A stretch of 64,000 nucleotides of DNA. Source: Lentisphaeria bacterium. GTDB taxonomy: Bacteria > Verrucomicrobiota > Lentisphaeria > Victivallales > Victivallaceae. Each line of letters starts with the position of its first letter. Position 1 is the first letter of the stretch. This document shows, one piece after another, positions 3,368 through 58,292 of the stretch. The DNA is taken from the NCBI GenBank assembly GCA_017508385.1, contig JAFVZB010000008.1, positions 32,848-96,847 of the forward strand, in the 5' to 3' direction. Made by a program: the position numbers and the translations under genes. The notes under the pieces are model-generated. The model ran no database searches. It was not told where the DNA came from and saw only the letters and a list, made by a program, of their open reading frames with translations.

Positions 3368-4414
3368 TCAATCAAGCAGGCTCCAGTCGAAAACTACGCC
3401 GAGGGGAGGATTTTTTCCGGTCGCAAGCATTGTATATACTTCGTGGGCATCTGCCGGAGAGACCAGTCGGTTTATCAGCGGCTTGAATGATAAGCGTCCT
3501 GCACCGAGCAGGTCGAGTATCACTCTGTAATCATTTTTTTCAGTCCAGGCATTTTCACGGTTATCCAGATGCGGACGGGTCATTGTGTGAGCTCCGATCA
3601 TGGTGATCCCGCGGCGGTGGACATATTTGTAGTAATCAATATTGACATCCGACACACGGGTGCATCCGAGCAAAGTTATTCTTCCCTCGTAGTTGATGTA
3701 TTCGAGTGCCTGCTGCAATGCCAGTGCTTTGCCGGTCACTTCCACCACAACGTCAGGACCGCAGCCGCGGGTGGCATCTTTGATCTTCTGCACCATGTCG
3801 GCATCAGACGGGTCAAAGACGATATCTGCTCCCATTTGTTTGGCAAGTTCCCTGCGTTCAGGAGAAAAATCGAGAGCCATTACAGGATATGCTCCTGAGA
3901 GTTTGGCAAACTGAATGGCAATCAATCCCAGAAGTCCGCATCCTGCAATCATTGCGCTTTCACCGATATTTATTTTGAGTTTGCGCACTGCGAGCAGCGG
4001 AAAACTTGCGATATGGGTGAATGCCGCCTCTATGCCGGAAACGGAGTCGTTTTCGATTTTTACTATTCCTTTGAAGCCGGGGTGCTTTACATTCGACATT
4101 ATCGCCTGCTCAGGGGTTCTGATCAAATGGGAAACATGACATCCCCAGTTGAGCACGACCCGGTCTCCGATGGTGAAATCAGATACTTTTCTTCCGGTTT
4201 CAATAACGTGACCGCTGGCACTGTAACCCGGATATTTCGGAAAGTTTTCCTGCGTGTTGGGCAGGTGCAGAAAGTTTGCCAGTTCCGTTCCTGCACTGAT
4301 AGCTGAGTAGTCATATTTTACCAGCAGTTCATCCGGCTGGAGTTTGTCGTTTATTTCGACATCGATCAGCTGTGCTTTTTCCTTTTCCGGAAAAACTATT
4401 TTTTTGATGAACAT
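3368..4414 (-). CDS. zinc-type medium-chain (MDR) alcohol/polyol dehydrogenase
   Basis: 348-aa ORF with GYSASGHV and Rossmann AGCGLLGL motifs, typical of sorbitol/threonine dehydrogenase-like MDRs. Confidence 0.8.
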   Translation of the reverse strand: MFIKKIVFPEKEKAQLIDVEINDKLQPDELLVKYDYSAISAGTELANFLHLPNTQENFPKYPGYSASGHVIETGRKVSDFTIGDRVVLNWGCHVSHLIRTPEQAIMSNVKHPGFKGIVKIENDSVSGIEAAFTHIASFPLLAVRKLKINIGESAMIAGCGLLGLIAIQFAKLSGAYPVMALDFSPERRELAKQMGADIVFDPSDADMVQKIKDATRGCGPDVVVEVTGKALALQQALEYINYEGRITLLGCTRVSDVNIDYYKYVHRRGITMIGAHTMTRPHLDNRENAWTEKNDYRVILDLLGAGRLSFKPLINRLVSPADAHEVYTMLATGKNPPLGVVFDWSLLD

Positions 4415-22381: not shown

Positions 22382-22552
22382 TTCTTTCTCCACAGTTAGA
22401 GTTTGTTTTTGTGTTTGTGTTACTATAACAGTACCTTTTCTTTTTTTCAAGTCTTTTTGAAAAAATATCTTCTTCAAGGTGTGGTTTTATTTGACTTTTA
22501 CGGAGTGTGTGGTATGGTTATAAGGATGACATAACGAAAAAAGGTACTTAAA

Positions 22553-23608
22553 ATGCAATACAAACAGCCGGAAATAATTGAAACTCTTGAAAAGAGGATT
22601 GCCGACGGCACATATAAAACGCTTCTTCCGACTTCAAAAATGCTGGCTGAAGAGTTCCGTGTCAATATCAAGACGGTAAACAAAGCGGTTGCCAGACTGG
22701 TTCGCCGCGGATTGGTCGTTCGCAAACGGCATGTCGGAACGCAGGTGGTGAAAAAAGATGAAATATCCGCAAGTGTACCTCAGCTGGTCGAAGTGCTGTA
22801 CGAGGGATTTACTGCCATCTTCACCCATCCCTTCTGGAGTGATATCTGGGATGGTATGGTTTCGGAGCTGTCAAGACACAAGTTCCGTCCGGTGCTCAAT
22901 ATGCTCAATTCCGACCCTGAGACCGGACTTCTTAAAACCGATGATATCTCTCTGCTGCCCGGAATAAGCAAAATCGTTCTCGGAATAAGCGAGGATAGAT
23001 TGCTAAATATGATAAAAAATATGAGTGTTCATTTTATCACCGCCTGCGATAATATAGACGACCCGGATGTGCCCCAAGTCTATTTTGATATGCGTGATGC
23101 CATTTCGGAGGCAGTCGAATATCTGTTCTCTCTCGGATGTTCCAGAATAGCTTTTATCGGTTCGACCGGAAGTCTGGTCAATCCGGGAAATATCCAGAAA
23201 TACCGCAGTTTCATCAAGGCGGTGCAGAAGCGGTGTAAACTTGACTCCAAACTTATCTGCAATATCCGTCCGCTTGCCGGAGCGGGCAGGGCGGCGATGG
23301 AAACTATGCTTGCCCGTACGACCTGTGATGCCGTTTTTGCCGCTTATGACCATCATCTGCCGGATATTTATGAGGTACTTGAAGAGCATGGATTATCACA
23401 CATTCCCGTGATAGGGTGTGACGGACTTGAAATATCAGCAGTTCCGGCAAACCGTTATGCAGTGATATCTCCCCGGAGGGCGTGCGGAGAGCTGTTGGCG
23501 AAAAGTTTTGTTGAGATGATGCAGGGCAGGGATATTCCAAAACAGCAGAGCCTGCGGGCGGGTTTCGGCAGGATGAATGTCAATTCTTCGGGTCAAAAAT
23601 ATCTCTGA
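22553..23608 (+). CDS. transcriptional regulator, GntR-type HTH fused to a LacI/PBP-like sugar-binding domain
   Basis: HTH LPTSKMLAEEFRVNIKTVNKAVARLVRRGLVVRKRHVGTQV followed by a roughly 270-aa periplasmic-binding-protein-like domain. Divergent from the glycosidase operon. Confidence 0.8.
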   Translation: MQYKQPEIIETLEKRIADGTYKTLLPTSKMLAEEFRVNIKTVNKAVARLVRRGLVVRKRHVGTQVVKKDEISASVPQLVEVLYEGFTAIFTHPFWSDIWDGMVSELSRHKFRPVLNMLNSDPETGLLKTDDISLLPGISKIVLGISEDRLLNMIKNMSVHFITACDNIDDPDVPQVYFDMRDAISEAVEYLFSLGCSRIAFIGSTGSLVNPGNIQKYRSFIKAVQKRCKLDSKLICNIRPLAGAGRAAMETMLARTTCDAVFAAYDHHLPDIYEVLEEHGLSHIPVIGCDGLEISAVPANRYAVISPRRACGELLAKSFVEMMQGRDIPKQQSLRAGFGRMNVNSSGQKYL

Positions 23609-36984: not shown

Positions 36985-39900
36985 TTATTCAAGGTCGCTC
37001 GCCCGGTTGCCGAGCCACGGATAGTCGAGTCCTTTGAGCTGCCACGATATCCATTTTGCGTTGACGATATACAGCTTCACGGTTTTTCCTCTGAATTCAG
37101 GTGGAATATCAAGTGTGAACGCTGTGCTGTTGAAATCACCCGCAAGCTCCTGTTCGGGAATGGTGTATGCTTTTGTTGTCAGCATCCTGCCGTCGCAGGT
37201 TTCAATGCCTGCCGCGAGGATCTCTCCGGCTGAAACATTGTTTTTTTGTTTCCAGTTCCAAAAAACCGAGAGTTTTCCTGATTGTGGAGCTTTTATGTAG
37301 ATGGCTGTCGGAGCTGAACTGGTGTTGCGTGCTCCGAATGTGCGCTTTGATGACAGTCGTATTTTACACGGACTCGATATGCTTCCCCACGAGTCGTTGT
37401 TGAAAATAATTTCCGCCCTCAGAGCCTTGCGGTCAGGAGAGGTTGCTTTTATCTGCCTGTGTTCCCAGGTCACGTTGCCGTCAAGGCAGATGCTTGTGAG
37501 CAGTTTACCTGTGGAGCTGAAAATTTTGCAGGTCACATAGTCATCTTTGAGTTTTTTGTTCCAGTAGCGGAACATTCTGAAACGGTACAAATCGAGAGTA
37601 CACACTCCGTCTTTATCGGGAGTTATCTCGAATATGAACGGCTCATAGTTGTTGAAGAGTCTCTGCACTCCGGCAAACATCGCCAGAAAATGGTACGCAT
37701 CCGGAGTGTTTTTGTGCTCGGGAATATTGTAGTGTTTCATGGCGTAAAGTCCGCCGAGTATCCAGGCGATGTTGGCTGAGCGGTAGGATCTCGGGTCGAG
37801 CATCCTGTTGAGCAGCGGAGAGTCGTTTTTGCCCCGGTTGAGGAACTCTATCAGCTCAGGTCGGTCGTAACGCAGTGCGGCACGGGCTCCGATAAGGATA
37901 CTCATTACTCCGCGTCCGGCATCGGCGTAACCTGTCCACGGAGGCATTACTGTACGGTCTTGAGGCATATCGGGGATATCGGTGCGGTTAGCTTTGGCAA
38001 AACGCTGTACCTCTTCGGTCATGCGGTCGAGATACTTTTTATCCTCAGTGACCTCGTAGAGTTTTTCGAGAGCCTCGTAAGCGATAGCTCCGTAATACGC
38101 TGAACCGTCTGATTTTCCGCCGTGATTGTACTGTCTATCCATGGCTTGTTTCACCAGTTTGTTGCCGGTGATGCCGTAGATTTCGGCGAGGTGGTAGAGC
38201 ATACGGTGACGCTCTCTGCCTCTGGGATATTTCAGTGACGATTTGGAAATCAATACTGCCATTGCGCTCACTGATGACTCATAACTTCTGCGGTCTCCTG
38301 TGAGCAGATAGTGCCAGACAAGTCCGGTCAGCCAGAAGTGTCCGGTGTGGAAACTGTAACTGTTGTTGTTGAAGCCGTTGTGGGTGTGCACGGCGGTGGT
38401 TCCGTAACGGATGTGCGCCTGGTCAAGGTCGCGCTGGTGTCTGGCGTGGACTTCCGCTATTTTGAAATCGTCAACGCATCCGGTCATCAGGAAACGCACC
38501 CAGAGATTGCGGACAATGGCGGTTTCGTGGTTGTCGAAGTACCCCCGTGAACCGAAGTCACCGTACTCCCAGAAGCCGTAATAGTTGTTGACTTTCGAGA
38601 AGCGTTTCATGTCTTCAAAGGTCGTGTCGATGATATGCTTGGATTTCGGGAAGTATTTTGCCATCTCCTTTTGTGTGAGGAACTCATCAAAAACTCCGCT
38701 CTGCCTGATGTGGTCGGGGTCGGGGTGGATGATAGCATTTGAACTCAGCGGAACCGATTTGCTCTCAGGAGCGTAGTTGAACTTCATCGTTCCTGATATT
38801 CCGGCAAATAAATCGGCAAAAGCCGCTCCCTCTTCCGGGTAGTGGTAGAGACGGATTTTTCCATCTTTGAATCCGATGGCGCGCGGAGCAAGTTCGGCAA
38901 AATCGGTTATGTGGAACGAGGCGTTTCCGCTTTTTCCGCTGCCCGAAAGGGTCAGGTTTTCGATGACCTCTTTTTTGCCGTTGCGCACGGCGTACACATC
39001 ACGTTTGAAGTAGCCTGTTCTGGTGTTTCGCTGAACGAAAATAGCGTTTCCGCTGCCTGAAAATGAGTCAACTTTGTAACTGCTGCCTCCGGGAAGCTCA
39101 ATAAAAATCGAGCGCACCTGACGGGTCATGGAGTCCCCGGCTGTAAAGTTGTTTTCAAATGAGTAATCGACCATCATGTACGGCTGGTCTTTGATGAATG
39201 TAAGGCGCAGCTCCCAGGCGAGCAGGGCAGTTCCGCGCAGGAAAATTGTTGCTCTCTGAGGTCCGTTTTCGTCAATGCGCACGATTTGGGCAGGGGAGCG
39301 GTTTATTTTGCCGTCAATGCTCTGCACCGCACAAAATGCGTCACTTCCTTTCAGGAACGATGCCGCTTTCGGAGTGAGCACCAGTTTGAGTTTTCCTGTG
39401 TCGATATGTATCTCATCACCCTTTTGCGCTGCAATGGCTGGAAATCCTGATTTGAACTCTTTTTTGCCGTACTCAAGAAAGAACTCTTTTCTTTCGTTGG
39501 CTTTGAGCTGAGTGTTGAAGTCAACCGCGACAGAGATCACGCTTTTATCGGTCGTGACTCTGCGGGCGAGGGCAGTGAACTGCGCCGGAACTTCTCTGCC
39601 GTTTTTGTCGGTGACTCTCAGACATCTGACATCGAAAAGAGCTCCTTTTGCAAAGGTGATGCCTCCGCGTACGGGAATGTTCTGGTAATCAACGTTATCC
39701 TGGTTTACCGCATGGAAACTTACCCTGCCTGTCGTGGGGTTTTCAGGCAATTTGTCAGGTTCGGCAAGCGGAGCAAGCGGGAAACAGTCTCCGACGGATG
39801 TGTTGAAGTCAGTGCTTCTCTGAGGCTTGAAATCTGTCGGTTTTGTGCTGTTTTGTTCAAGCTGCAAGGCATCGATGAAAAGCGGAGATTTTCCGGTATT

Positions 39901-41235
39901 GCGGATGGTTGCAATATACAACGACTGACCTGCCCGGGGCTTTTGTTTGAGCGGAGATATAAAGTGATATCTTTTCCAACTGTTGTCGGCTGTGAATGAT
40001 TTTTTCCAGATATTGAAAGCGACCGGTCCGTGGATTTTTCCGAGTTGCTGTCTAAAATCGAGCTCAAAATTACCGTTTCCTTTGGCGTAGAGCGAAAAAA
40101 TCGCAGTTCTGCCGACGTGGTCGCAGGTCTGGATGGTGATAAATCCACCGGGAGCGATTTCAAGACTGCGTTTGCCGTGGAATTTTTCAGCGGTTGAAAA
40201 TTTCAATCCCGAAGCGAGCTTTTCGCTGTGGTAATCGCCCCATGAAACAAAGTTTCCACGTGGAGTTGAAGCCTCTTCAAAACTGGGGTCGGGAATGAGA
40301 TTTTTAGCATTGTCCTCGAGGTCGATATCGATTATACGGCACTTTCTGATGCTTTGTTTTCCGTCGATAGTAAAGGAAAGTTCCTCGAATTTCACCAGAT
40401 CGTGGTAGTGGGCGAACTTCGAGAGCGGAATTTTTATTCTTCTTGCTCCATTTTTGCTGGCGGTGATATGGTCGAGCTCAACCGTTTTTTTAGTGCCGTA
40501 ACTGGTGATGTCAATGGTGACAGGTGTGGATGTTCCGAGCTCAAAAGCCATGGCTCCGAACTCAGGAGTCGAGCCGAGCAGTTCGTAAAATTTTCCGTTC
40601 TGACAGCGCAGGGTCAATGTTCCCTTGCCTTCAAGAATGAATGTGTCATTTTTTAAATTTGCTTTGAGTCCGTCTGAACACTTCCAGTTCCAGAAGAGCT
40701 TGTTTTTTCCGACACTGAGAAATGAGCCTGTGCCGCAGTTCCAAATCGGGCTTCCAGCTGCTCTGGTTTCAAGTTTGATGTTGCGGAAGAGAGCTTCTCC
40801 TGCTCTGTTCCAGCTTCTTGCCGCCTCTATCGAAGCGTAAAGTGTGAATGTGTTTTCCGGTATGTCAAGGGCACATTCGATCGACACCGGAGCGTGTTTG
40901 CCTCTGAACGGCAGTGAGCTCCTTTTCGAGAAACGTTTGCCGTCTCTGGTTTTTCCATAGAGCGAGAGACCCACCACATCAGGACGGTCGGAGTAGAGCT
41001 GTTCGACATCAGCTGATATCACCAGCTGTTTTCCGGCAAAGTTTTTGATTTCAGCTTTGGAAAACTTGCGCACGATCGCCGCAGTTTTCGGCTTTCTGGT
41101 CTTGCGTGCAAGGTAAAGAGTTCTATCTTTGTACTCAACTTTTTCCAGATTTTGAGCGTTCCACTGTTTGAGGTCGAAACTGCTCGCCTGGAATATGAGC
41201 AGCAAAAACGCTGTAAATGTAAAGAGAAATTTCAT
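36985..41235 (-). CDS. large secreted multi-domain protein: CBM-like jelly-roll modules plus a PcRGLX/YetA-like (PL26-like) region
   Basis: 1416 aa with signal peptide [22 protein letters not shown]4/9-like segment LIPDPSFEE...W...[18 protein letters not shown]...[13 protein letters not shown] resembles the PcRGLX N-terminal barrel, and [24 protein letters not shown] resembles its alpha/alpha-toroid region. Family call is from memory and unverified. Confidence 0.55.
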
Positions 41236-42188
41236 TTTTCACCTTCCCGTCTGCCCCAGAAAATACAGTCTTCTGCGGTGGCATAGGATTTGTATTTGTT
41301 ATAATATGGAATATCTGCTAGGGTATTGACGTTGAGTTTAGCTCCGGCGTGACCGTCAATAAAGACTATCTGGAGAGTTCCTGCATGGCGTTCAGCTCCT
41401 GCCAGTATCAGGGGATGATCTTCTTCTTTTTCGTTGCCGAGAACTGAGCACACTACTGTGTTGGTGGTCAGGGGAGAGAGGTCGGTGTCGAGAAACAGTA
41501 CGCTTCTTGATGGATAACGGATTTTTCTTACCTGCATTCCGCTCAGAAGCTCGTTGTAGCCGTAACTTGTTTCAACTGTTGCGGAGCTCGGAGCAACTAC
41601 TGCATCAGCCGGGCAGGCGAGTATCGGAGCATAATGTGTGCCATCAGGTCTTTTTATCCATTGAATGTATTTTTTGTTGGCAAGCAATCCTTCGAGCTGG
41701 TCAGGACGGTTCCACCATTTGAGGCTGGTCTGGGAACCTGTTTTGGTCGGTGCTCTGTGACGCATTAAAACGCCGTTGCTGTCATGGGTGTAATTTGCCA
41801 TGGCGAGTCCGATGGATTTCAGATTGTTCTGACATGCTGCTCCCTGAGCACGCAGTTTTGCACTTTGCAAGGCAGGCATGAGTATAGCCGCCAATATGGC
41901 GATAATCGCAATGACAACCAATAGTTCTATAAGGGTAAAGGAATACGCGGGAAGAGAGGGAAACTTCTTTTCACGAGAAAAGAAGTTTCCCTCTCTCCCC
42001 GCACCCCTCTCACCCTTCAAGAAAAGCGGAGTACTTTTTTGAAAACAATATAACGGTGAAACACATATTTGACAAGTTTTGCTCACAAGAAGTTCGATGA
42101 GGGTGAAACGGAATTCAAAGCGTGAGAGTTTCACCTGTTTCTTATTCATACCGGAGGCGTTTGATACGGAGCAGGGGGACTTTTTCAT
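41232..42188 (-). CDS. prepilin-type N-terminal domain / H-X9-DG family pseudopilin-like protein with duplicated leader
   Basis: [24 protein letters not shown] followed by a C-terminal [12 protein letters not shown] (H-X9-DG). An extra upstream in-frame FTLIELLV is present. AGGAAAAGG RBS before ATG 42188. The TGA overlaps the downstream ATG (ATGA). Confidence 0.75.
41947..42040 (+). repeat. palindromic repeat element, copy 1 (inside the pseudopilin coding frame, antisense orientation)
   Basis: Arms 41947-41972 and 41977-42002 give 26 pairing positions with one mismatch and a 4-nt loop. Tail GCACCCCTCTCACCCTTCAAGAAAAGCGGAGTACTTTTTT follows. Confidence 0.85.
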
Positions 42189-42218
42189 GGCACCTTTTCC
42201 TTTTTTTATTGTTGATGT

Positions 42219-43310
42219 TTACAAACTCTCTCTCTTAATGACTCCGACCGGCAGCAGTTCTGAAACTGACCGGCGCTTTTCAACGACATCCATAAGGATT
42301 TTCACTGCGTTGCGGCTGAGCAAATCGGAATCGATTTTTACCGTGGTCAGGGCTGGATTTGAGTAGGCTGAAAATCCGATTCCTCCAAATCCGGATACTG
42401 CAAAATCGTCTGGAACTCTGTAACCGAACCTGCGCAGGGAGCTTATCACTTTGATCGCAACGTAGTCATTGCAGCAGATGAAAGTTGCTCCATGATTTTC
42501 GGGAACAGCTATCTCTCTGAGTTGTTCGTGAATGAGCGGATGGTGGTCAAAATGGTTGAAATCCAGGTGGAAGAAGTTGTCGTATCTGATGTTTTTGCCG
42601 TAATCGACAATGGTGTATTGTATTCCGGCTTTTTTTGCCGCCCGCTCAAAACAAATTTTGCGCCAGCGGTGGGATGAGTTGTGTTCCTGGGTGATGAAGA
42701 ATACCGGAGCTTTTCTTTGAGCGGCAAGTTCGAGCAGCCGGCTGAATCCCATTTCGGCATCAGGAGCTGTGACTGGAATTGTTCCCTCTTCGGGATTTCC
42801 GTCAACTATAACTGCATTTTTGAAGAGTTCCTCAAGGAAACAGTAGTTGTTTTTCAGTGTCTGAAAGCCGGAATCAATGATAACTCCGTCATACTTCATG
42901 TTTTTGAAGAGCTCTTTTGCTTCGTCAGGCGTGTGAAACTCTTTGGAAAACACTGAAAAATCAAGATTGAACTCTCTGGTTTGAGCCTCGGCTCCGAAAA
43001 TAATATCGCTGTAATAGCTGTCGGTGACATCGTATTGCAGAATTCTTGTGTAGTGATTTATCAGGCAAAAACGGTTGTGGAGTATTCCGCTGCCGTCACT
43101 TTTGATGAAAGTTCCCTTGCCCGGATAAGTCTCAAGAATGTTATCCTCGACCATCAACCTTATCGCTTTGCGGACAGATGTGCGGGAAACTCCCAGCTTT
43201 TCGCAGAGCAGGTTTTCGGAATAAATCGCTTCGCCGACCTTCATTTTACCCTCAGAGATGCACTCCCTGAGAAATGCCGCCACCTGAAGATAAATTTTAT
43301 CCTTTGCCAT
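42219..43310 (-). CDS. transcriptional regulator, GntR-type HTH fused to a LacI/PBP-like sugar-binding domain
   Basis: HTH LLCEKLGVSRTSVRKAIRLMVEDNILETYPGKGTFI plus a PBP-like domain. Same architecture as 22553-23608. Confidence 0.8.
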   Translation of the reverse strand: MAKDKIYLQVAAFLRECISEGKMKVGEAIYSENLLCEKLGVSRTSVRKAIRLMVEDNILETYPGKGTFIKSDGSGILHNRFCLINHYTRILQYDVTDSYYSDIIFGAEAQTREFNLDFSVFSKEFHTPDEAKELFKNMKYDGVIIDSGFQTLKNNYCFLEELFKNAVIVDGNPEEGTIPVTAPDAEMGFSRLLELAAQRKAPVFFITQEHNSSHRWRKICFERAAKKAGIQYTIVDYGKNIRYDNFFHLDFNHFDHHPLIHEQLREIAVPENHGATFICCNDYVAIKVISSLRRFGYRVPDDFAVSGFGGIGFSAYSNPALTTVKIDSDLLSRNAVKILMDVVEKRRSVSELLPVGVIKRESL

Positions 43311-43383: not shown

Positions 43384-43500
43384 GTGGCAGTAAAAAATTT
43401 TTTCAAAAAAATTGTTGCAGTTCCAAAAAGGCAGAGGTATAAAAAACAGCTCATCCCGAAAAAAAAGCGTAAAAAAGTCCGGCTCAGAAACACAAGCGTA

Positions 43501-43600
43501 AAAAAAGTACTCCGCTTTTCTTGAAAAGGGAAGGGGGGTGCAGGGGGGAAGGGGAAAACTTCTTTTCCCGTCGAAAAGAAGTTTTCCCCTTCCCCCCTGC
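43501..43600 (-). repeat. palindromic repeat element, copy 2 (inverted relative to copies 1 and 3)
   Basis: Perfect 27-28 bp arms 43540-43567 and 43573-43600 with 5-nt loop. The conserved tail is present as its reverse complement at 43501-43539. Lies directly downstream of the hydG-like stop codon. Confidence 0.85.
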
Positions 43601-43619
43601 GTCATCACATTGCCTATTA

Positions 43620-45044
43620 TCAAAACCTGAAGTCGCGTTCGCCGGTGGAGATTTTTTTGATGAACTCTTTGGCGGTTTTACGGGCGGTTTCGTTGGGGAT
43701 TTTTTCGAGTTCGCGCTCGATGACTTTGAGGCCTTTGGCTTTGGTATCGTCTGAGGCGTAGTCTTCGAGGTACTCTTTGAGGGTGATGATGGCGTTGGGG
43801 TGGCAGCAGTTGCTGATTTGTCCGGATTTAGCGAGGGACATGAAGCGGTCACCTGTTCTGCCCTCACGGTAGCAGGCGGTGCAGAAGCTCGGGATATATC
43901 CGAGTTCGAGCAGCCAGTTTACTACCTGGTCGAGGGTACGGCGGTCGCTCAGCTCGAACTGGGCTGAGTTATCCTCTTCTTCCTCCTCTTCGGCGTAGCC
44001 TCCGACGCTGGTGCGTGAGCCTCCGCTGATTTGGGAAACTCCGAGTTCGAGGACACGTTTGCGAGCCTCTTTGCTCTCACGGGTGGAGACGATGAGTCCG
44101 GTGTAGGGAACGGCTATTCTCAGCACTGCCACGATTTTGGCGAAGGTGTCGTCGTCGATGCCGTTGCTGAAAGCGTTGGGGTCGATGTCATCGGCTTTGC
44201 GGATGCGGGGAACGCTCATGGTGTGCGGACCTACTCCTTTAGCCGCCTCGAGGTGTTCAGCGTGCATGAGCATGCCGACAAAATCATAGCGGTAGAGATT
44301 GAGTCCGAAGAGGACACCGCAGCCGACGTCGTCGATACCGCCATCCATGGCTCTATCCATCGCCTCGGTGTGCCAGGCGTAGTCGTGTTTCGGACCTGCG
44401 GGGTGGAGCTCTTCGTAGGTCTTGCGGTGGTAGGTTTCCTGAAAGAGGATATAAGTACCTATTCCGGCATCCTTGAGTTTGCGGTAGTTTTCGACCGTGG
44501 TGGCGGCGATGTTGACGTTGACACGGCGGATGGCTCCGTTTTTATGCTTGATGCTGTAAATGGTTTTGATGCTTTCGAGCACATATTCGATGGGATTGTT
44601 CACCGGGTCTTCTCCGGTCTCGAGGGCGAGGCGTTTGTGACCCATATCCTGCAGGGCGATGACCTCTTTAACGATATCCTCCTGAGAGAGCTTCACCCGG
44701 CGGATGTTTTTGTTTTTGATGTGATATGGGCAGTAAACGCAGCTGTTCACGCTGTAGTTCGACAGATACAGCGGAGCGAACATCACGATGCGGCTGCCGT
44801 AAATGCGCTCTTTGATTTGCTTTGCCAGAGCGAAAATCTTTTCGTTCTGTTCGGGAAGGTCGCAGTCGAGCAGAACGGCGGCTTCACGGTGGGATAATCC
44901 CTTGCAGAGAGCCGCCTTTTCTATAAGTTGGTCGATGAGTTCACGGTTTGAACGGTTGGCTTTGGCGTACTCGAGAGTCGCCAGGATTTCTCCGTCGTTG
45001 ATAAATTCGTCTGCGATGTTTGACATCACATCATAGCGGTACAT
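43620..45044 (-). CDS. hydG: HydG-like radical SAM protein ([FeFe]-hydrogenase maturase / tyrosine lyase family) with atypical cluster motif
   Basis: 474 aa. PLYLSNYSVNSCVYCPYH aligns with the recalled HydG consensus PLYLSNYCVNGCVYCPYH. C-terminal CTACYREGRTGDRFM...NCCHPNA (CX2CX22C). First radical-SAM Cys is Ser. Confidence 0.75.
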   Translation of the reverse strand: MYRYDVMSNIADEFINDGEILATLEYAKANRSNRELIDQLIEKAALCKGLSHREAAVLLDCDLPEQNEKIFALAKQIKERIYGSRIVMFAPLYLSNYSVNSCVYCPYHIKNKNIRRVKLSQEDIVKEVIALQDMGHKRLALETGEDPVNNPIEYVLESIKTIYSIKHKNGAIRRVNVNIAATTVENYRKLKDAGIGTYILFQETYHRKTYEELHPAGPKHDYAWHTEAMDRAMDGGIDDVGCGVLFGLNLYRYDFVGMLMHAEHLEAAKGVGPHTMSVPRIRKADDIDPNAFSNGIDDDTFAKIVAVLRIAVPYTGLIVSTRESKEARKRVLELGVSQISGGSRTSVGGYAEEEEEEDNSAQFELSDRRTLDQVVNWLLELGYIPSFCTACYREGRTGDRFMSLAKSGQISNCCHPNAIITLKEYLEDYASDDTKAKGLKVIERELEKIPNETARKTAKEFIKKISTGERDFRF

Positions 45045-54843: not shown

Positions 54844-55722
54844 ATGGCAGGAAAAAATCCGGCAAACGGGTACGATCACGGAGGCTCTCTGCTCTTTCCG
54901 CTGCGTGGAGTTCATCTTCACTCGATGGTCAAAGGGGCAGGGCGTCAGCGAACTTGCGACCACTCCTATAACTGGGATGGCACCAAGCGGGGAAACCGTG
55001 ATCTCGTGCTCTGGCAGTACACGATTTCAGGTATGGGCGCAGTCGATTACGCATCACGCACCATGTATCTCGAGCCGGGTAAGGCGTTCCTGCTGGTCGT
55101 GCCCGAAAAGCACCGCTACTATCTGCCGGAAAACTCCGACCACTGGGAGTTTTTATACCTCTCGCTCAACGGTACTGAAATCGTCAGGCTCGCATGGGAG
55201 CTCCGCCGTATGTCAGGTGCCGTCTCAAGCCGCTACTGTTCTGAAAAGAGCGTGGCTGTCGCCAACAGGATAATTGACGGAGTCATCAACAAAACGCTCT
55301 CTCCGCATCAGGCAAGTGCGGTGGCTTACGAATTTATGATGACACTGCTTTCTGAGAGTGAAGCAGCTCCGTCGGGAGTCGATGTCGATCTGCACCAGAT
55401 CATGCACGACTACTGTCTCGAAAACATCGAGCGTCATCCCGATATCGACGAGCTTGCGGAGGTCGCAGGGTACAGCAGAGGTCACTTTTACCGCAAGTTC
55501 AAGGAAAAAACCGGAGCCAATCCGCACGAGTTTATCCTCGACCTTAAAATGCGTTTCGCCATGCGCAAACTGCAGAACGAATACAATATCTCGGTCAAAG
55601 AGGTCGCAGCCGCCTGCGGTTTCGAGGACCCGAGCTATTTTTGCAAAGTTTTCAAGAAATTTTTCGGAGTAACTCCCGCCTGCTTCAGAGGGGAAAAACG
55701 AAAGAAGGAGTCTGTTTTATGA
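54844..55722 (+). CDS. AraC family transcriptional regulator
   Basis: C-terminal double HTH (DELAEVAGYSRGHFYRKFKEKTG...VAAACGFEDPSYFCKVFKKFFG). Divergent from the GH4 gene. Confidence 0.85.
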   Translation: MAGKNPANGYDHGGSLLFPLRGVHLHSMVKGAGRQRTCDHSYNWDGTKRGNRDLVLWQYTISGMGAVDYASRTMYLEPGKAFLLVVPEKHRYYLPENSDHWEFLYLSLNGTEIVRLAWELRRMSGAVSSRYCSEKSVAVANRIIDGVINKTLSPHQASAVAYEFMMTLLSESEAAPSGVDVDLHQIMHDYCLENIERHPDIDELAEVAGYSRGHFYRKFKEKTGANPHEFILDLKMRFAMRKLQNEYNISVKEVAAACGFEDPSYFCKVFKKFFGVTPACFRGEKRKKESVL

Positions 55723-56822
55723 TAATAAACAAATTTTACACCGACGGCGGATGTGCTGAACTTTTTATATCCTCAGAGTCTGAACGCCGTGAGAGTTTCC
55801 GTGATGAGGTGGTCACGACTTTGTGCGAGCTTCAGACCGCCATTCCCTCGAACTTCAAGCTGGTCTGGGTGCGTTTCCATGTGAGCGACATCGCCAATCA
55901 GTACGCCGAAATCGAGAGTGCGACCCGTGAACTGCCTGCCATGATATCCGTGGTCGGACAGGCTCCCCTGAGCGGAGCGCACATTGCTGTTGAGGCTTAT
56001 GCCATTGATGCCGACTGCACCATCGAGTGCAACGACAACAGCGTGTGCAAGATAGATTTTGAAAATTACAGCCAGCTCTTCTTCAATCTGAAAGAGGTGA
56101 AGTCAGGCGACAGTTTCGGTCAGATGAATGAGGAGTTTGAACTTGCTGAAAAACTCATCTCATCTTTTTCAGGTACCATCGAAAACAATCTCCAGCGCAC
56201 CTGGATATACTGCCGGGATATCGACAACAACTATGCCGGATTGGTCAAAGCCCGCCGTGAGCTCTTTGAAAAGCTGGGCATGGTCGCCGATACCCACTAT
56301 ATTTCAAGCACCGGGATCGAGGGGCAGTCACATCCGCACAACCGTCTGGTGAGGATGGATTCCTTTGCTCTCTTCGGTCACGAAAGAGAACAGATAGCAT
56401 ACCTGCACGCCCTTGAAAATCTCTCTCCCACCCACGTTTACGGAGTCACTTTCGAGCGGGGAACCCGTATCATTTACGGAGACCGCAGCCACTATTATAT
56501 TTCCGGCACAGCCAGCATTGACAAAGATGGCAACGTGATGCACCTCTGCAATGTCGAAAAACAGACCGAAAGACTGCTCGACAATGTCGAAGCACTCCTT
56601 GCCGAAGGCGGAGGAACTCTTGCCGACCTCAGGCAGGCGGTGGTTTATCTGCGTGACCCTGCTGACAGAGCACTGGTCGAAAAAGTGATGAGCAAGAGAG
56701 TTCCTGCCGATACCGCACGGGTGATGGTGCGGGGCTCGATCTGCCGCCCGACCTGGCTGGTCGAGATGGATGCCATCGCCGTAAACAACAAAGGCAACAG
56801 CAAATTCAAGCCGCTTTGTTGA
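55719..56822 (+). CDS. RidA/YjgF-fold protein, FkbO/Hyg5/XanB2 chorismatase-like
   Basis: LQRTWIYCRDIDNNYAGLVKARRELF and ISGTASIDKDGNVMH...EKQTERLLDNVEALL resemble chorismatase-family motifs. ATG 55719 overlaps the AraC TGA (ATGA). AAGGAG RBS at 55705-55710. Confidence 0.5.
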   Translation: MIINKFYTDGGCAELFISSESERRESFRDEVVTTLCELQTAIPSNFKLVWVRFHVSDIANQYAEIESATRELPAMISVVGQAPLSGAHIAVEAYAIDADCTIECNDNSVCKIDFENYSQLFFNLKEVKSGDSFGQMNEEFELAEKLISSFSGTIENNLQRTWIYCRDIDNNYAGLVKARRELFEKLGMVADTHYISSTGIEGQSHPHNRLVRMDSFALFGHEREQIAYLHALENLSPTHVYGVTFERGTRIIYGDRSHYYISGTASIDKDGNVMHLCNVEKQTERLLDNVEALLAEGGGTLADLRQAVVYLRDPADRALVEKVMSKRVPADTARVMVRGSICRPTWLVEMDAIAVNNKGNSKFKPLC

Positions 56823-56861
56823 AAATTTTGTTCCTGATATGGGAAGATGATGCGGGGAGAG

Positions 56862-56957
56862 AGGGAAAACTTCTTTTCCCGGGAAAAGAAGTTTTCCCTC
56901 TCTCCCCGCGCCCCTCTCTCCCTTTCAAGAAAAGCGGGAAACCTTTTTACCCTTGTA
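56862..56957 (+). repeat. palindromic repeat element, copy 3
   Basis: 58-nt perfect palindrome 56862-56919 (29-bp arms, no loop) followed by tail GCGCCCCTCTCTCCCTTTCAAGAAAAGCGGGAAACCTTTTT. Confidence 0.9.
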
Positions 56958-57014
56958 GGGAACGGAGCTTTGTTAAAAATCAGAGTGTTTTGATATTCCG
57001 CACTTGCAAACATG

Positions 57015-57049
57015 AAAAAAGCCCGCAGTTTTGCGGGCTTTGTGTTTGA
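57015..57049. terminator. bidirectional rho-independent terminator
   Basis: A-run 57015-57020, stem GCCCGCA/TGCGGGC (57021-57027 with 57032-57038), then T-rich tract. Lies between convergent genes. Confidence 0.65.
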
Positions 57050-57062
57050 TGGAGCGGATGAT

Positions 57063-58292
57063 TTATTTGAGTCTTCCGGTGTAAGCATCAACATCTGAGG
57101 TGTCGATTTTCTGCGAGAAGAATTTGTTAGCGGCTTTGTTGAGTTCTTTATCCCACGGACGATCTTTTCCGTTCAGCTGTACGACTTTGAGTCTGAGCTC
57201 TTTCTTTTTCCAGTTGACATTGCAGCTGGTTCCCCATGCTCCGCCGTGACCCATGATGCCGATTTTTTCGTTGACGAGGAGTCCGAGAGAGTAGCGTCCG
57301 AGCTTTTCGGGACGGGTTGATTTGGCGAGATACTTTTTAACAGTTTCCTCTTTGAGAATACGCACTCCGTTGTCGCCGACACCGAGGTTCATCAGCATCT
57401 TGTAGAACTTGAGCTGGTCATTGGTGGTGAGCCAGAGTCCTGCTCCGGCGGAGGGATGGACATTGGGACCGTTGTGGGGAAGAGGCATCCATTTGTTGAA
57501 CTTGCGGAACTTTGCTTTCTGACCTTTTTTTACATCGTACATTGATATGGCTCTTGACAGCTGCTCCTCTGTGGGGTTGAAAGTGGCATCTTTCATGCCG
57601 AGTTTGTCAAAGAGACGCTCTTTGAGGAAAACCTCCCACGGCTGACCTGACACGACTTCGACGATGGCTGCACCGATGTCGATTCCGGTATTGGAGTATT
57701 TCATTTTGGTTCCGGGCTCAAAAAGCAGCGGCTGTGCGGCAGCTTCTCTGGCAGCATCACGCAGAGAGCATCCGGGCCAGCCTTTTTTCTGCTTGGTCGG
57801 GATCTCGAACTGGTATCCTCCGGTATGGTTCATCACCATGCGGATGGTCAGCACGTTTTTGGCAGGAACTGTGCTCTTTTTGCCATCTTTGCCTTTGACC
57901 GCAACTTTGAGGTTTTTGAACTCGGGAAGGTACTTCGAGACCGGGTCGTCAAGAGAAATTTTGCCCTCTTCGAGCAGGATCGCAATGGTGACTCCGCAGA
58001 AACCTTTGGTCTGTGAGCACTGCATGAACATTCTGTCGAGTGACATCGGGATTTTTTTCTCAACATCAGCCCAGCCGGAACAGGTGGTTTCCTGAACTCC
58101 GTTCTTGTAGAAGATGCTGATGATACCGGGGAGCTCTCCTGATTCGATGTATGGTTTGACCGCAGCGGCGGCGAAGTTGGTTTTGCTCTCTTTTACTTTT
58201 GCTTCCACGGCTTTGCAGCAGCATCCTGCAAGAAGCAGTGCGGATATTGCCGGTAAGGCAACTCCTGATAACCATTTTGCTCTCATTTTCAT
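57063..58292 (-). CDS. serine hydrolase, beta-lactamase/PBP-related family, lipoprotein
   Basis: SQTK (SxxK), YSN and HGG motifs. Lipobox LLAGC near the N-terminus. Confidence 0.8.
   Translation of the reverse strand: MKMRAKWLSGVALPAISALLLAGCCCKAVEAKVKESKTNFAAAAVKPYIESGELPGIISIFYKNGVQETTCSGWADVEKKIPMSLDRMFMQCSQTKGFCGVTIAILLEEGKISLDDPVSKYLPEFKNLKVAVKGKDGKKSTVPAKNVLTIRMVMNHTGGYQFEIPTKQKKGWPGCSLRDAAREAAAQPLLFEPGTKMKYSNTGIDIGAAIVEVVSGQPWEVFLKERLFDKLGMKDATFNPTEEQLSRAISMYDVKKGQKAKFRKFNKWMPLPHNGPNVHPSAGAGLWLTTNDQLKFYKMLMNLGVGDNGVRILKEETVKKYLAKSTRPEKLGRYSLGLLVNEKIGIMGHGGAWGTSCNVNWKKKELRLKVVQLNGKDRPWDKELNKAANKFFSQKIDTSDVDAYTGRLK

Follow-up and report, generated by a model that had tools for sequence, protein, structure and literature searches.

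Three-way covariation suggests a triplex-forming module in a family of miniature transposable elements of Lentisphaeria

Whether triple-helical DNA or RNA forms in living bacteria, and whether it has a role there, has been debated since the BoxC/PIT repeats: the TM motif of E. coli folds as single-stranded DNA into a stable purine-motif intrastrand triplex in vitro, but this fold is unseen in vivo (PMC4666352). BoxC/PIT/TM_ECO (Hoyne et al. 2000; Holder et al. 2015, PMC4666352) is also the described class closest to the element reported here, which occurs in three palindromic copies in a 64,000-nt stretch of a Lentisphaeria bacterium (assembly GCA_017508385.1, contig JAFVZB010000008.1, positions 32,848 to 96,847 of the forward strand; hereafter the window). 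Each copy holds a long hairpin followed by a tail. From sequence comparison across the family, we consider it probable that the element is a selected, triplex-forming core module of a Lentisphaeria family of miniature inverted-repeat transposable elements (MITEs).

The present family is no sequence member of the BoxC/PIT/TM class and has no homology to it in sequence, but it shares much of its design. Both are dispersed intergenic bacterial repeats with three consecutive G/A- or C/T-rich blocks per strand and short loops, and they are alike in composition (GGGNGAGGG in TM, GGGGAGAGAGGG here), in the fit of purine-motif triad rules, in the pyrimidine-motif version carried by the complementary strand and in having no clear link to gene function. 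Among the four classes (I-IV) of intramolecular triplex designs (PMC4666352), TM_ECO, with 9-nt blocks in the order Y-R-RH, is class II, whereas the purine-rich strand of the present family reads RH, a linker of 0-3 nt, R, a loop of 4-5 nt and Y, and so belongs to class I, with the opposite strand in class III; with 21-24 triads it is about 2.5 times longer than TM and has the opposite block order. It departs from the TM_ECO/BoxC consensus (CCCTCNCCC N3-6 GGGNGAGGG N3 GGGNGAGGG) in block order, length and flanks, and it differs further from TM in its hairpin of 26-29 bp, a third strand that would switch strands, a constant 3' segment and its place within a MITE with terminal inverted repeats (TIRs) and target-site duplications (TSDs). 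The uninterrupted homopurine tract of ITxF motifs (stems of 6-15 nt) is absent, as 13-17 nt of purine give way to 9 nt of pyrimidine within one arm; the distal purine block alone would qualify as such a tract, and a full-length triplex needs a strand switch. Three-way covariation across subfamilies is a property of the present family, and we found no report of it for BoxC.

Other known systems share single features with the family. Like the bacterial MITEs Correia, ERIC and RUP (PMC4666352), it is shorter than 200 bp, multi-copy and non-coding, has TIRs, TSDs and long stem-loops, and is mainly intergenic, often at gene 3' ends. The stem-loop of a typical MITE consists of its terminal repeats, whereas here the hairpin is internal, separate from the TIRs and followed by a mirror third strand. 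Repetitive extragenic palindromes (REPs) are imperfect palindromes of 20-40 bp with a conserved GTAG-type head and RAYT tyrosine transposases, and have neither TIRs nor TSDs. The present copies resemble REPs and bacterial interspersed mosaic elements in being palindromic and extragenic, in lying after stop codons or between convergent genes and in their absence from divergent promoter regions, but their TIRs, TSDs and much longer stem (26-29 bp plus the tail) place them outside the REP definition. The 3' arm and the tail, each about 25 nt long and 0-3 nt apart, together form a mirror repeat, as in purine-type H-DNA, and the purine half could fold onto the neighbouring duplex under negative supercoiling and Mg2+. 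Classical H-DNA, however, is homopurine throughout and has no palindromic partner; here each half of the mirror consists of a purine and a pyrimidine block, and the third copy of the sequence, the 5' arm, would permit a purely single-stranded fold. A single third strand that binds adjacent purine tracts on both strands by crossing the groove is found in synthetic alternate-strand triplex-forming oligonucleotides (PMC2532714). Those are designed intermolecular reagents, whereas the present family is natural and intramolecular. Alternate-strand designs use similar base skips at the junction. We know of no natural repeat family built in this way.

All three palindromic copies given in a preliminary description of the window are present, with hairpins of 26, 28 and 29 bp (Table 1), and its positions were correct except for the start of copy 3, which had been set at 56862, 10 nt inside the hairpin. 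Folding energies, computed with Watson-Crick pairs only, lie about 7 standard deviations below those of dinucleotide shuffles in each copy, whether RNA or DNA parameters are used (z about -7), and the window has 6 occurrences of the apex word GAAAAGAAGTTT, where 0.7 would be expected. The module is laid out as a hairpin of 26-29 bp, a linker of 0-3 nt, a mirror segment of 24-25 nt and a constant GCGRNGTAYTTTT end. The hairpin has a polarity, with purines in the 5' arm and pyrimidines in the 3' arm over the distal 13-17 bp and the reverse over the apical 9 bp; in copy 3, where the 29 bp are perfect and without a loop (a 58-nt palindrome), the 5' arm has a purine-rich distal part GGGGAGAGAGGGAAAA and a pyrimidine apex part CTTCTTTTC. 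The tail had been described as conserved (GC(A/G)CCCCTCTC..CCCTT). It is not constant: it varies together with the arms in mirror register, and only its last part is nearly so (CAAGAAAAGCG(G/A)NGTA(C/T)TTTT).

A scan for the apex palindrome, with one genome per species, returned at least 89 loci, nearly all of them from at least 13 gut and rumen metagenome-assembled genomes (MAGs) of Lentisphaeria/Victivallaceae (SIG81, SIG83, SIG84, SIG92 and SIG93; RGIG3449, RGIG4094 and RGIG5513; SUG133; and four Victivallaceae); among the matches listed, at least two are chance matches in other phyla. Depending on the analysis, 85-95 copies were parsed, of which 53-69 were unique. Read 5' to 3', the tail is the complement of the 5' arm read in the same direction (a parallel complement), and hence a mirror repeat of the 3' arm, as seen in the arm/tail pairs GGGGAGAGAGGGAAAAC / CCCCTCTCTCCCTTTC, GGGGGGAAGGGGAAAAC / CCCCCCTTCCCTTTTC, GGGGGAAGAAAAAAAC / CCCCCATCTTTTTTC and GGGAGCGGGGAAAAC / CCCTCACCCTTTTC. 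The relation extends through the apex, where arm CTTCTTTTC is matched by tail CAAGAAAAG, and in copy 2 the arm G6-AA-G4-A4 is mirrored in the tail as C6-TT-C3-T4. In all copies the tail is one base shorter than the arm, with the gap near the purine-to-pyrimidine junction. The parallel complement fitted better than the antiparallel one in 51 of 51 unique copies (mean scores 8.8 and 0.4); two other readings of the tail, a direct repeat of the 3' arm and an antiparallel Watson-Crick complement of the 5' arm, were therefore rejected. A copy's own tail also fitted its arm better than the tails of other copies did (8.32 vs 5.53; 0 of 10,000 permutations).

Tail-arm pairs were then counted in a pseudo-alignment with the tail reversed, in a fixed register and without fitting of individual sequences; the three base-most positions, which overlap nucleotides of the 3' arm, were excluded from the count of triads. 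Among 69 unique copies, the mirror rule was satisfied in 93.0% of cells, compared with 45-75% in six shifted registers. Changes on both sides were found at 12 of 21 tail-arm positions (6.7 +/- 1.1 in shuffles; 0 of 500) and in 99 cells (19.3 +/- 3.8 in shuffles). Along a minimum spanning tree of the same 69 sequences both arms changed 49 times, and in 40 of these the tail changed concordantly, nearly always to the predicted base. These coordinated three-way changes include the lengths of A-runs and G-runs, C interruptions and an indel. At the apex, the variants of 5' arm, 3' arm and tail are CTTC/GAAG/CAAG (83 copies), CTTT/AAAG/CAAA (4) and CCTC/GAGG/CGAG (2), with five further copies as T.G intermediates; they were found as extra copies within the same loci and are therefore free of the constraint imposed by the scan pattern. 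One locus (L108) carries an additional base in the apex of the 5' arm, in the apex of the 3' arm and in the tail, a three-way insertion.

The compensatory substitutions and the AAAC/AAAAC indel reported between the arms of the three window copies are real, and they are general across the family. Arm-arm pairing holds in 96.9% of cells of the 69 unique copies (47-74% in shifted registers), with 15 of 26 arm pairs changed on both sides and 221 doubly changed cells against 55.8 +/- 6.9 in shuffles. Copies elsewhere thus retain complementary arms. By itself this is no proof of selection on structure, as had been proposed, because template switching at quasipalindromes during replication creates such "compensatory" arm changes by mutation, in single events (PMC8794818, PMC7202029). 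No copying mechanism yields a mirror repeat, that is, one which is reversed and not complemented, and it is therefore the tail, and not the arms, that provides the evidence for selection. The structure concerned would be the hairpin together with a third strand, and not a plain hairpin or cruciform. We regard it as improbable that the element is an ordinary MITE palindrome whose arms are maintained by template switching and whose tail resembles them through low complexity and common descent. Single switch events would account for the arms, the contrast of G/A with C/T richness produces 45-75% "pairing" in any register, and copies do cluster in near-identical subfamilies; yet the tracking of the arms at 12 positions and the 40 concordant changes have no such origin, the direct-repeat model fails, and the correct register stands apart from all six shifted ones.

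Another reading that takes the mirror as incidental is that selection acts on a G-quadruplex of the purine-rich strand, or on an i-motif of the C-rich strand, and that the mirror merely supplies four G-runs. A canonical motif (four runs of G3+ with N1-7 spacers) does span the complement of tail and arm in 42 of 61 unique copies, but the other 19 lack four G-runs and still keep the mirror rule (for instance GGGGGAAGAAAAAAA / CCCCCATCTTTTTT). Arm changes from A to G are mirrored by tail changes from T to C, and the apex, made of A and T only, covaries in three ways; a quadruplex needs none of this, and we hold such an origin to be very improbable.

The vehicle of the module has the features of a MITE. 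Its TIRs are about 25 bp long (GGCTYTGTTCCCGAYAWGGGTAGAT ... ATCTACCCWTRTCGGGAACARAGCC); of 85 parsed copies, 19 have both cores and a further 28 have one. Among the window copies the TIRs are clear in copy 3, degenerate in copy 2 and absent from copy 1. Flush direct repeats of 8-10 bp flank 11 of the 19 complete copies, six with target duplications of exactly 8 bp (AAAGTAAA, ATGAAAAA, TTTTACAA, TTATTTTT, TATATGAA and TTTCAAAA) and four with 10-nt repeats with at most one mismatch. Ends of this kind, with duplications of 8 bp, may resemble those of the ISL3 family. The interval between the TIR cores measures 134-162 bp, and the copies are non-coding, numerous and set in unrelated flanks. In agreement with the preliminary description, the element is thus dispersed, non-autonomous and MITE-like, and the different flanks of the three window copies speak against a local duplication. 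The copies form subfamilies of near-identical sequences, with divergent ones such as the GGGGGAAGAAAAAAA and GGGAGCGGGG types. Over 122 nt, copy 3 has 96% identity with the copy L025, found at another locus in MAG SIG84, whereas genes shared by the window and SIG84 are 71-78% identical, so that the element is much more strongly conserved than its host genomes. It matches no Rfam family at the gathering threshold, with only generic microRNA-precursor hairpin matches of 21-38 bits against thresholds of 47-135. Such sub-threshold matches to microRNA precursors are expected from any long hairpin. A literature search found no described Lentisphaeria MITE, and the family, from Lentisphaeria of gut and rumen, is newly described here as a MITE family; the earlier statement that no described family applies is to be qualified only in that a described class of intrastrand triplex motifs exists in BoxC/PIT/TM (PMC4666352).

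The same TIRs also enclose other inner modules. Different or interrupted interiors were observed at L012:2385-2600, L033:1645-1825, L021:410-600, L093, L097 and L094/L098/L100/L102, among them a CCGCCATAGCCTTGGCGACGGCGG unit and a TTCTATTTTCTTAAGACTTTTAAGCGGCAC.. unit, which point to a MITE superfamily with modular interiors. The constant tail end (..TTTCAAAAAAAGCGGNGTATTTG) also occurs alone, without a hairpin (L057 near 827, L061 near 1645 on the reverse complement, L078 near 2884), sometimes directly behind a stop codon or behind a MITE end (after the right repeat in L004, L010, L030 and L088), and in L032, at about 3400-3600, as three tandem GCGGCGTATTTGTTGAGGG units. A scan of metagenomes for the TIRs gave 15 loci, none with a transposase; two of them (L091, L101) proved to be fortuitous hits within ordinary genes. 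Downstream of the L069 copy, where a transposase was also sought, lie a tRNA-like stretch (3700-3870, translation ..GAGIEPA..) and an open reading frame (ORF) that does not encode one. A tRNA-like stretch together with a repeated TTTTGTCAACATACGCAAAACGCTTGT motif lies downstream of several SIG84 copies (L001, L033, L069).

A purine strand, its pyrimidine partner and a mirror third strand, all in one molecule and joined by short linkers, amount to the design of an intramolecular triplex. The third segment would occupy the hairpin's major groove, running from the base of the stem up to its apex. Near the apex the arm turns from purines to pyrimidines and the tail does likewise, so that the third strand would have to cross between the duplex strands, as in the designed alternate-strand oligonucleotides (PMC2532714); it would do so at the purine-to-pyrimidine junction, where it may skip one base. 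If a triplex forms, the folding strand is by a slight preference the purine-rich one, the complement of the strand as written in the preliminary description. This strand would fold as single-stranded or supercoil-extruded DNA into a class I purine-motif triplex, with triads G.GC and A.AT or T.AT distally and T.AT or C+.GC apically; an equivalent purine-type H-DNA may also form. Somewhat more than half of the weight that we place on a selected triplex module would go to this purine-strand DNA version.

The written strand may instead fold as RNA, in which case the element would be a 3'-untranslated-region (3'-UTR) structure whose hairpin and pyrimidine-motif triple helix (C+.G-C and U.A-U distally) cap the 3' end, shield the mRNA from 3' exonucleases or help to insulate or terminate transcription. 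Pyrimidine-type intrastrand triplexes are possible in RNA (PMC4666352), and the T.G apex of five copies would be a U.G wobble there. Such a cap would resemble the ENE, a triple-helical stability element of RNA, in that a downstream tract folds into the major groove of a stem near the transcript 3' end. In the ENE of MALAT1 and PAN, which is eukaryotic or viral, the A-rich tail forms U.A-U triples in a U-rich internal loop. An RNA version of the present module would be rich in C+.G-C, unlike the ENE, and is disfavoured by the triads and mismatches. On the written strand, the distal triads are G-C.C (458), A-T.T (297), A-T.A (60), C-G.A (18) and G-C.T (34), and the apical ones T-A.A (412) and C-G.G (135). 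Opposite A-T, either A or T is accepted by the purine motif but only T by the pyrimidine motif (PMC4666352), and the 60 A-T.A and 18 C-G.A triads are non-canonical in the pyrimidine motif. On the purine-rich strand the same distal cells read G.GC (458), A.AT (297), T.AT (60), T.CG (18) and A.GC (34), the last being non-canonical, and the apical ones T.AT and C+.GC. The purine motif is also independent of pH, whereas the pyrimidine motif would need about 10 protonated cytosines in the module, runs of 4-6 among them, at neutral pH.

Hairpin mismatches mostly place A in the 5' arm against C in the 3' arm (20 cells at 9 positions, with G.T in 5 cells at 2 positions). The A/C mismatches become G.T wobbles when read on the purine-rich strand; in RNA of the written strand they would persist as A/C, and not as G.U, in the would-be central purine strand. 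In cells with non-complementary arms, the tail fits the 3' arm 22 times and the 5' arm 4 times, and along the spanning tree changes confined to one strand are most frequent in the tail (31), followed by the 5' arm (13) and the 3' arm (9); by both measures it is the complement of the 3' arm that acts like the central strand, which would be in contact with the other two. Triad rules, mismatch spectrum and this hierarchy of conservation together favour the purine-rich strand, and since purine-motif triplexes do not form in RNA (PMC4666352), the favoured form would be DNA.

Gene context was assessed from crude ORF calls. The hairpin usually starts 3-35 nt past a stop codon, typically that of a co-oriented gene, and of the 35 copies closely flanked by genes on either side, 15 have convergent neighbours, 20 tandem ones and none divergent ones. 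In tandem settings 15 of 20 copies are co-oriented with the genes, so that the purine-rich strand is usually the template, and in convergent settings 12 of 15 lie nearer to the co-oriented gene; each bias reaches only p of about 0.04. Copies 2 and 3, 13 kb apart, have opposite orientations and each follows its own upstream gene, which links the bias to transcription and weakens an explanation by replication strand. These biases weigh against the purine-strand DNA triplex, because an RNA-level role of the other strand predicts the same pattern. They can be read as a sense-strand RNA role or as host selection against the purine-rich strand as non-template. Under the DNA triplex reading, the structure might, as a weaker suggestion, stall polymerases or attract breakage and repair, which would aid the spread or retention of the element and its recombination with prepilin gene starts, and host selection would favour copies at the 3' ends of genes with the purine-rich strand as template, the placement that would be least harmful.

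A conserved T-run at the 3' end would also suit an RNA element. It lies about 38 nt past the stem and is not terminator-like, a terminator scan called no intrinsic terminator at any of the three window copies, and canonical terminators follow several copies, so that the element was rejected as an intrinsic terminator. Just beyond copy 3, between convergent genes, the canonical bidirectional terminator AAAGCCCGCAGTTTTGCGGGCTTT occupies 57018-57041, which means that the MITE sits between a stop codon and the real terminator. The module also recurs in reverse orientation within the 5' ends of prepilin genes, which weighs against a 3'-UTR element. Taken with the triads and mismatches, this makes the RNA structure rather unlikely in our judgement.

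Other considerations stand on the same side of the balance as the orientation bias. Triplex formation is read here from sequence alone. The scan pattern required the apex palindrome, so the sample is ascertained; the sequences are of low complexity (G/A against C/T) and the copies are related by descent, both of which inflate apparent covariation, a concern that the shifted-register and spanning-tree controls lessen and do not eliminate. One subfamily with two arm mismatches was nevertheless amplified to at least 10 copies, and a perfect fold is therefore not required for spread. No autonomous partner was found, with no pair of TIRs more than 300 bp apart and no TIR-adjacent transposase in about 0.75 Mb of loci. 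A DDE transposase that uses TIRs and leaves TSDs acts on double-stranded ends and is not known to require a triplex inside the element. The E. coli TM triplex went undetected by in vivo footprinting, and the motif showed no promoter or terminator activity (PMC4666352).

For RNA helices, covariation is the accepted proof from evolution, and the same logic is extended here to a third strand. Dozens of subfamilies change hairpin and mirror segment jointly by triad rules, and they make the family a natural, sequence-diverse test set for biophysics and in vivo probing; covariation searches should include parallel (mirror) partners besides antiparallel ones. If the triplex reading is true, triplex DNA would exist in living bacteria and would be favoured by selection. 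We advance only tentatively that this may be the first natural family with a long (21-24 triad), strand-switching intramolecular triplex backed by three-way covariation, and that its module also belongs to a cassette which enters prepilin-like genes at their conserved FTLIELLV-coding start and supplies a replacement FTLIELLV.

That cassette concerns copy 1, to which the description of a free-standing intergenic element does not extend: it lies reversed inside ORF 41232..42188 (- strand), in the 5' end of a prepilin-like gene, within a 144-nt in-frame insert without a stop codon between the resident M..FTLIELLV and a second FTLIELLVV.... A protein search gave 375 matches, at least 36 with E below 1e-10, to Lentisphaeria prepilin-like proteins (PF07963/PF07596) of the same architecture. 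The insert is 95% identical between the window and L022, with 49% identity in the leader and 48-55% in the downstream coding sequence, so that orthologous insertions were rejected in favour of a single cassette that carries a FTLIELLV copy of its own at one end and sits in different genes. Cassettes of about 145 nt were also found at L022:3990-4260 and, at about 1500-1760, in L105, L106 and L108; the latter three keep the mirror rule with more mismatches and share synteny with the window (regulator, pilin-like gene, DUF4838 protein). Real FTLIELLV codons stand exactly at the expected site of the left repeat in copy 1, L014, L022 and L089. The TIR core ATCTACCCGTATAGGGAAC resembles FTLIEL-coding DNA TTTACCCTTATAGAAC (for example in the window at 56830-56848 and 56945-56963, and in L004, L046 and L062); in a position weight matrix test the match ranked in the top 0.1-2% of random 28-mers, only with a 2-nt gap allowed, and we regard the resemblance as no more than suggestive. 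Recurrent insertion into the N-terminal coding region of numerous prepilin-like genes affects annotation.

Since the strand opposite to the hairpin joins two FTLIELLV motifs in one reading frame, both in five DNA contexts and in dozens of database proteins, conservation at the protein level, as a long leader peptide, has to be considered along with the open insert of copy 1. Such a coding origin is hardly credible for the family: about 90 of 95 sampled copies lie between genes, at gene 3' ends, the reading frame through the hairpin differs from protein to protein (for example ..GKTSFPVKRSFSPLP..), which places the constraint on nucleotides, and palindrome and mirror symmetry have no explanation at the protein level.

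Table 1. Positions in the window of the parts of the three element copies and of associated sites
Feature	Position	Strand	Remarks
Copy 1, 5' arm	41947..41972	+	Carries the single mismatch (A opposite C)
Copy 1, 3' arm	41977..42002	+	With 5' arm: 26 bp, 1 mismatch, 4-nt loop
Copy 1, putative third-strand segment	42003..42026	+	ACCCCTCTCACCCTTCAAGAAAAG; tracks the 3' arm, not the mutated 5' arm
Copy 1, post-tail segment	42027..42040	+	CGGAGTAC + T6
FTLIELLV codons at cassette end	41916..41939	-	Start of mature prepilin-like protein; replaces left inverted repeat in copy 1
Sigma-70-like site	42047..42075	-	TTGTCA-17-TATATT, 10/12 matches; inside insert, toward element and pilin-like gene
Resident first FTLIELLV codons	42084..42107	-	Same ORF, upstream of insert
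Copy 2, degenerate right inverted repeat	43481..43504	-	TTTTTACGCTTGTGTTTCTGAGCC; by eye against right repeat of copy 3
Copy 2, post-tail segment	43500..43514	-	CGGAGTAC + T7
Copy 2, putative third-strand segment	43515..43539	-	ACCCCCCTTCCCTTTTCAAGAAAAG
Copy 2, 3' arm	43540..43567	-	With 5' arm: 28 bp perfect, 5-nt loop
Copy 2, 5' arm	43573..43600	-	GCAGGGGGGAAGGGGAAAACTTCTTTTC
Copy 2, degenerate left inverted repeat	43601..43620	-	..ATAATAGGCAATGTGATGAC; similarity judged by eye
Copy 3, left flanking direct repeat	56814..56825		CTTTGTTGAAAA; 12 nt, 1 mismatch to 56968-56979
Copy 3, complete MITE	56826..56967	+	About 142 bp; TIR cores and flanking direct repeats
Copy 3, left TIR core	56830..56848	+	GTTCCTGATATGGGAAGAT
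Copy 3, 5' arm	56852..56880	+	29 nt, 100% complementary to 3' arm
Copy 3, 3' arm	56881..56909	+	Complement is the putative central purine strand of the triplex
Copy 3, putative third-strand segment	56910..56934	+	GCCCCTCTCTCCCTTTCAAGAAAAG; mirror of 3' arm, parallel complement of 5' arm
Copy 3, conserved post-tail segment and T-run	56935..56948	+	CGGGAAACCTTTTT
Copy 3, right TIR core	56945..56963	+	TTTTACCCTTGTAGGGAAC
Copy 3, right flanking direct repeat	56968..56979		CTTTGTTAAAAA

The left flanking repeat of copy 3 includes the TGA stop (56820-56822) of ORF 55641..56822, and the left inverted repeat of copy 2 abuts the stop codon (43620-43622) of ORF 43620..45044. The sigma-70-like site inside the insert of copy 1 is a weak candidate, with 3 such sites in the region against 2.0 expected; the stretch is conserved in L022, and its translation recurs in database proteins. 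The order of a GntR/LacI-type regulator, a prepilin-like protein and a very large DUF4838-type protein in the window (36985-43310, - strand) is also present in L105 and L108, unrelated metagenome contigs that likewise carry the cassette. A serine-hydrolase/beta-lactamase-like gene at 57063-58292 has orthologues in two other MAGs (L028:5620-6650 and L034:137-1355), each of which adjoins a copy of the element on a different side or in a different orientation, the L028 copy directly after ..VDAYTGRLK*; this indicates that the insertions near this gene are independent. Finally, a separate pair of 28-nt inverted repeats, 75% complementary and 99 nt apart, lies at 22412-22566 of the window and is unrelated to the MITE family.

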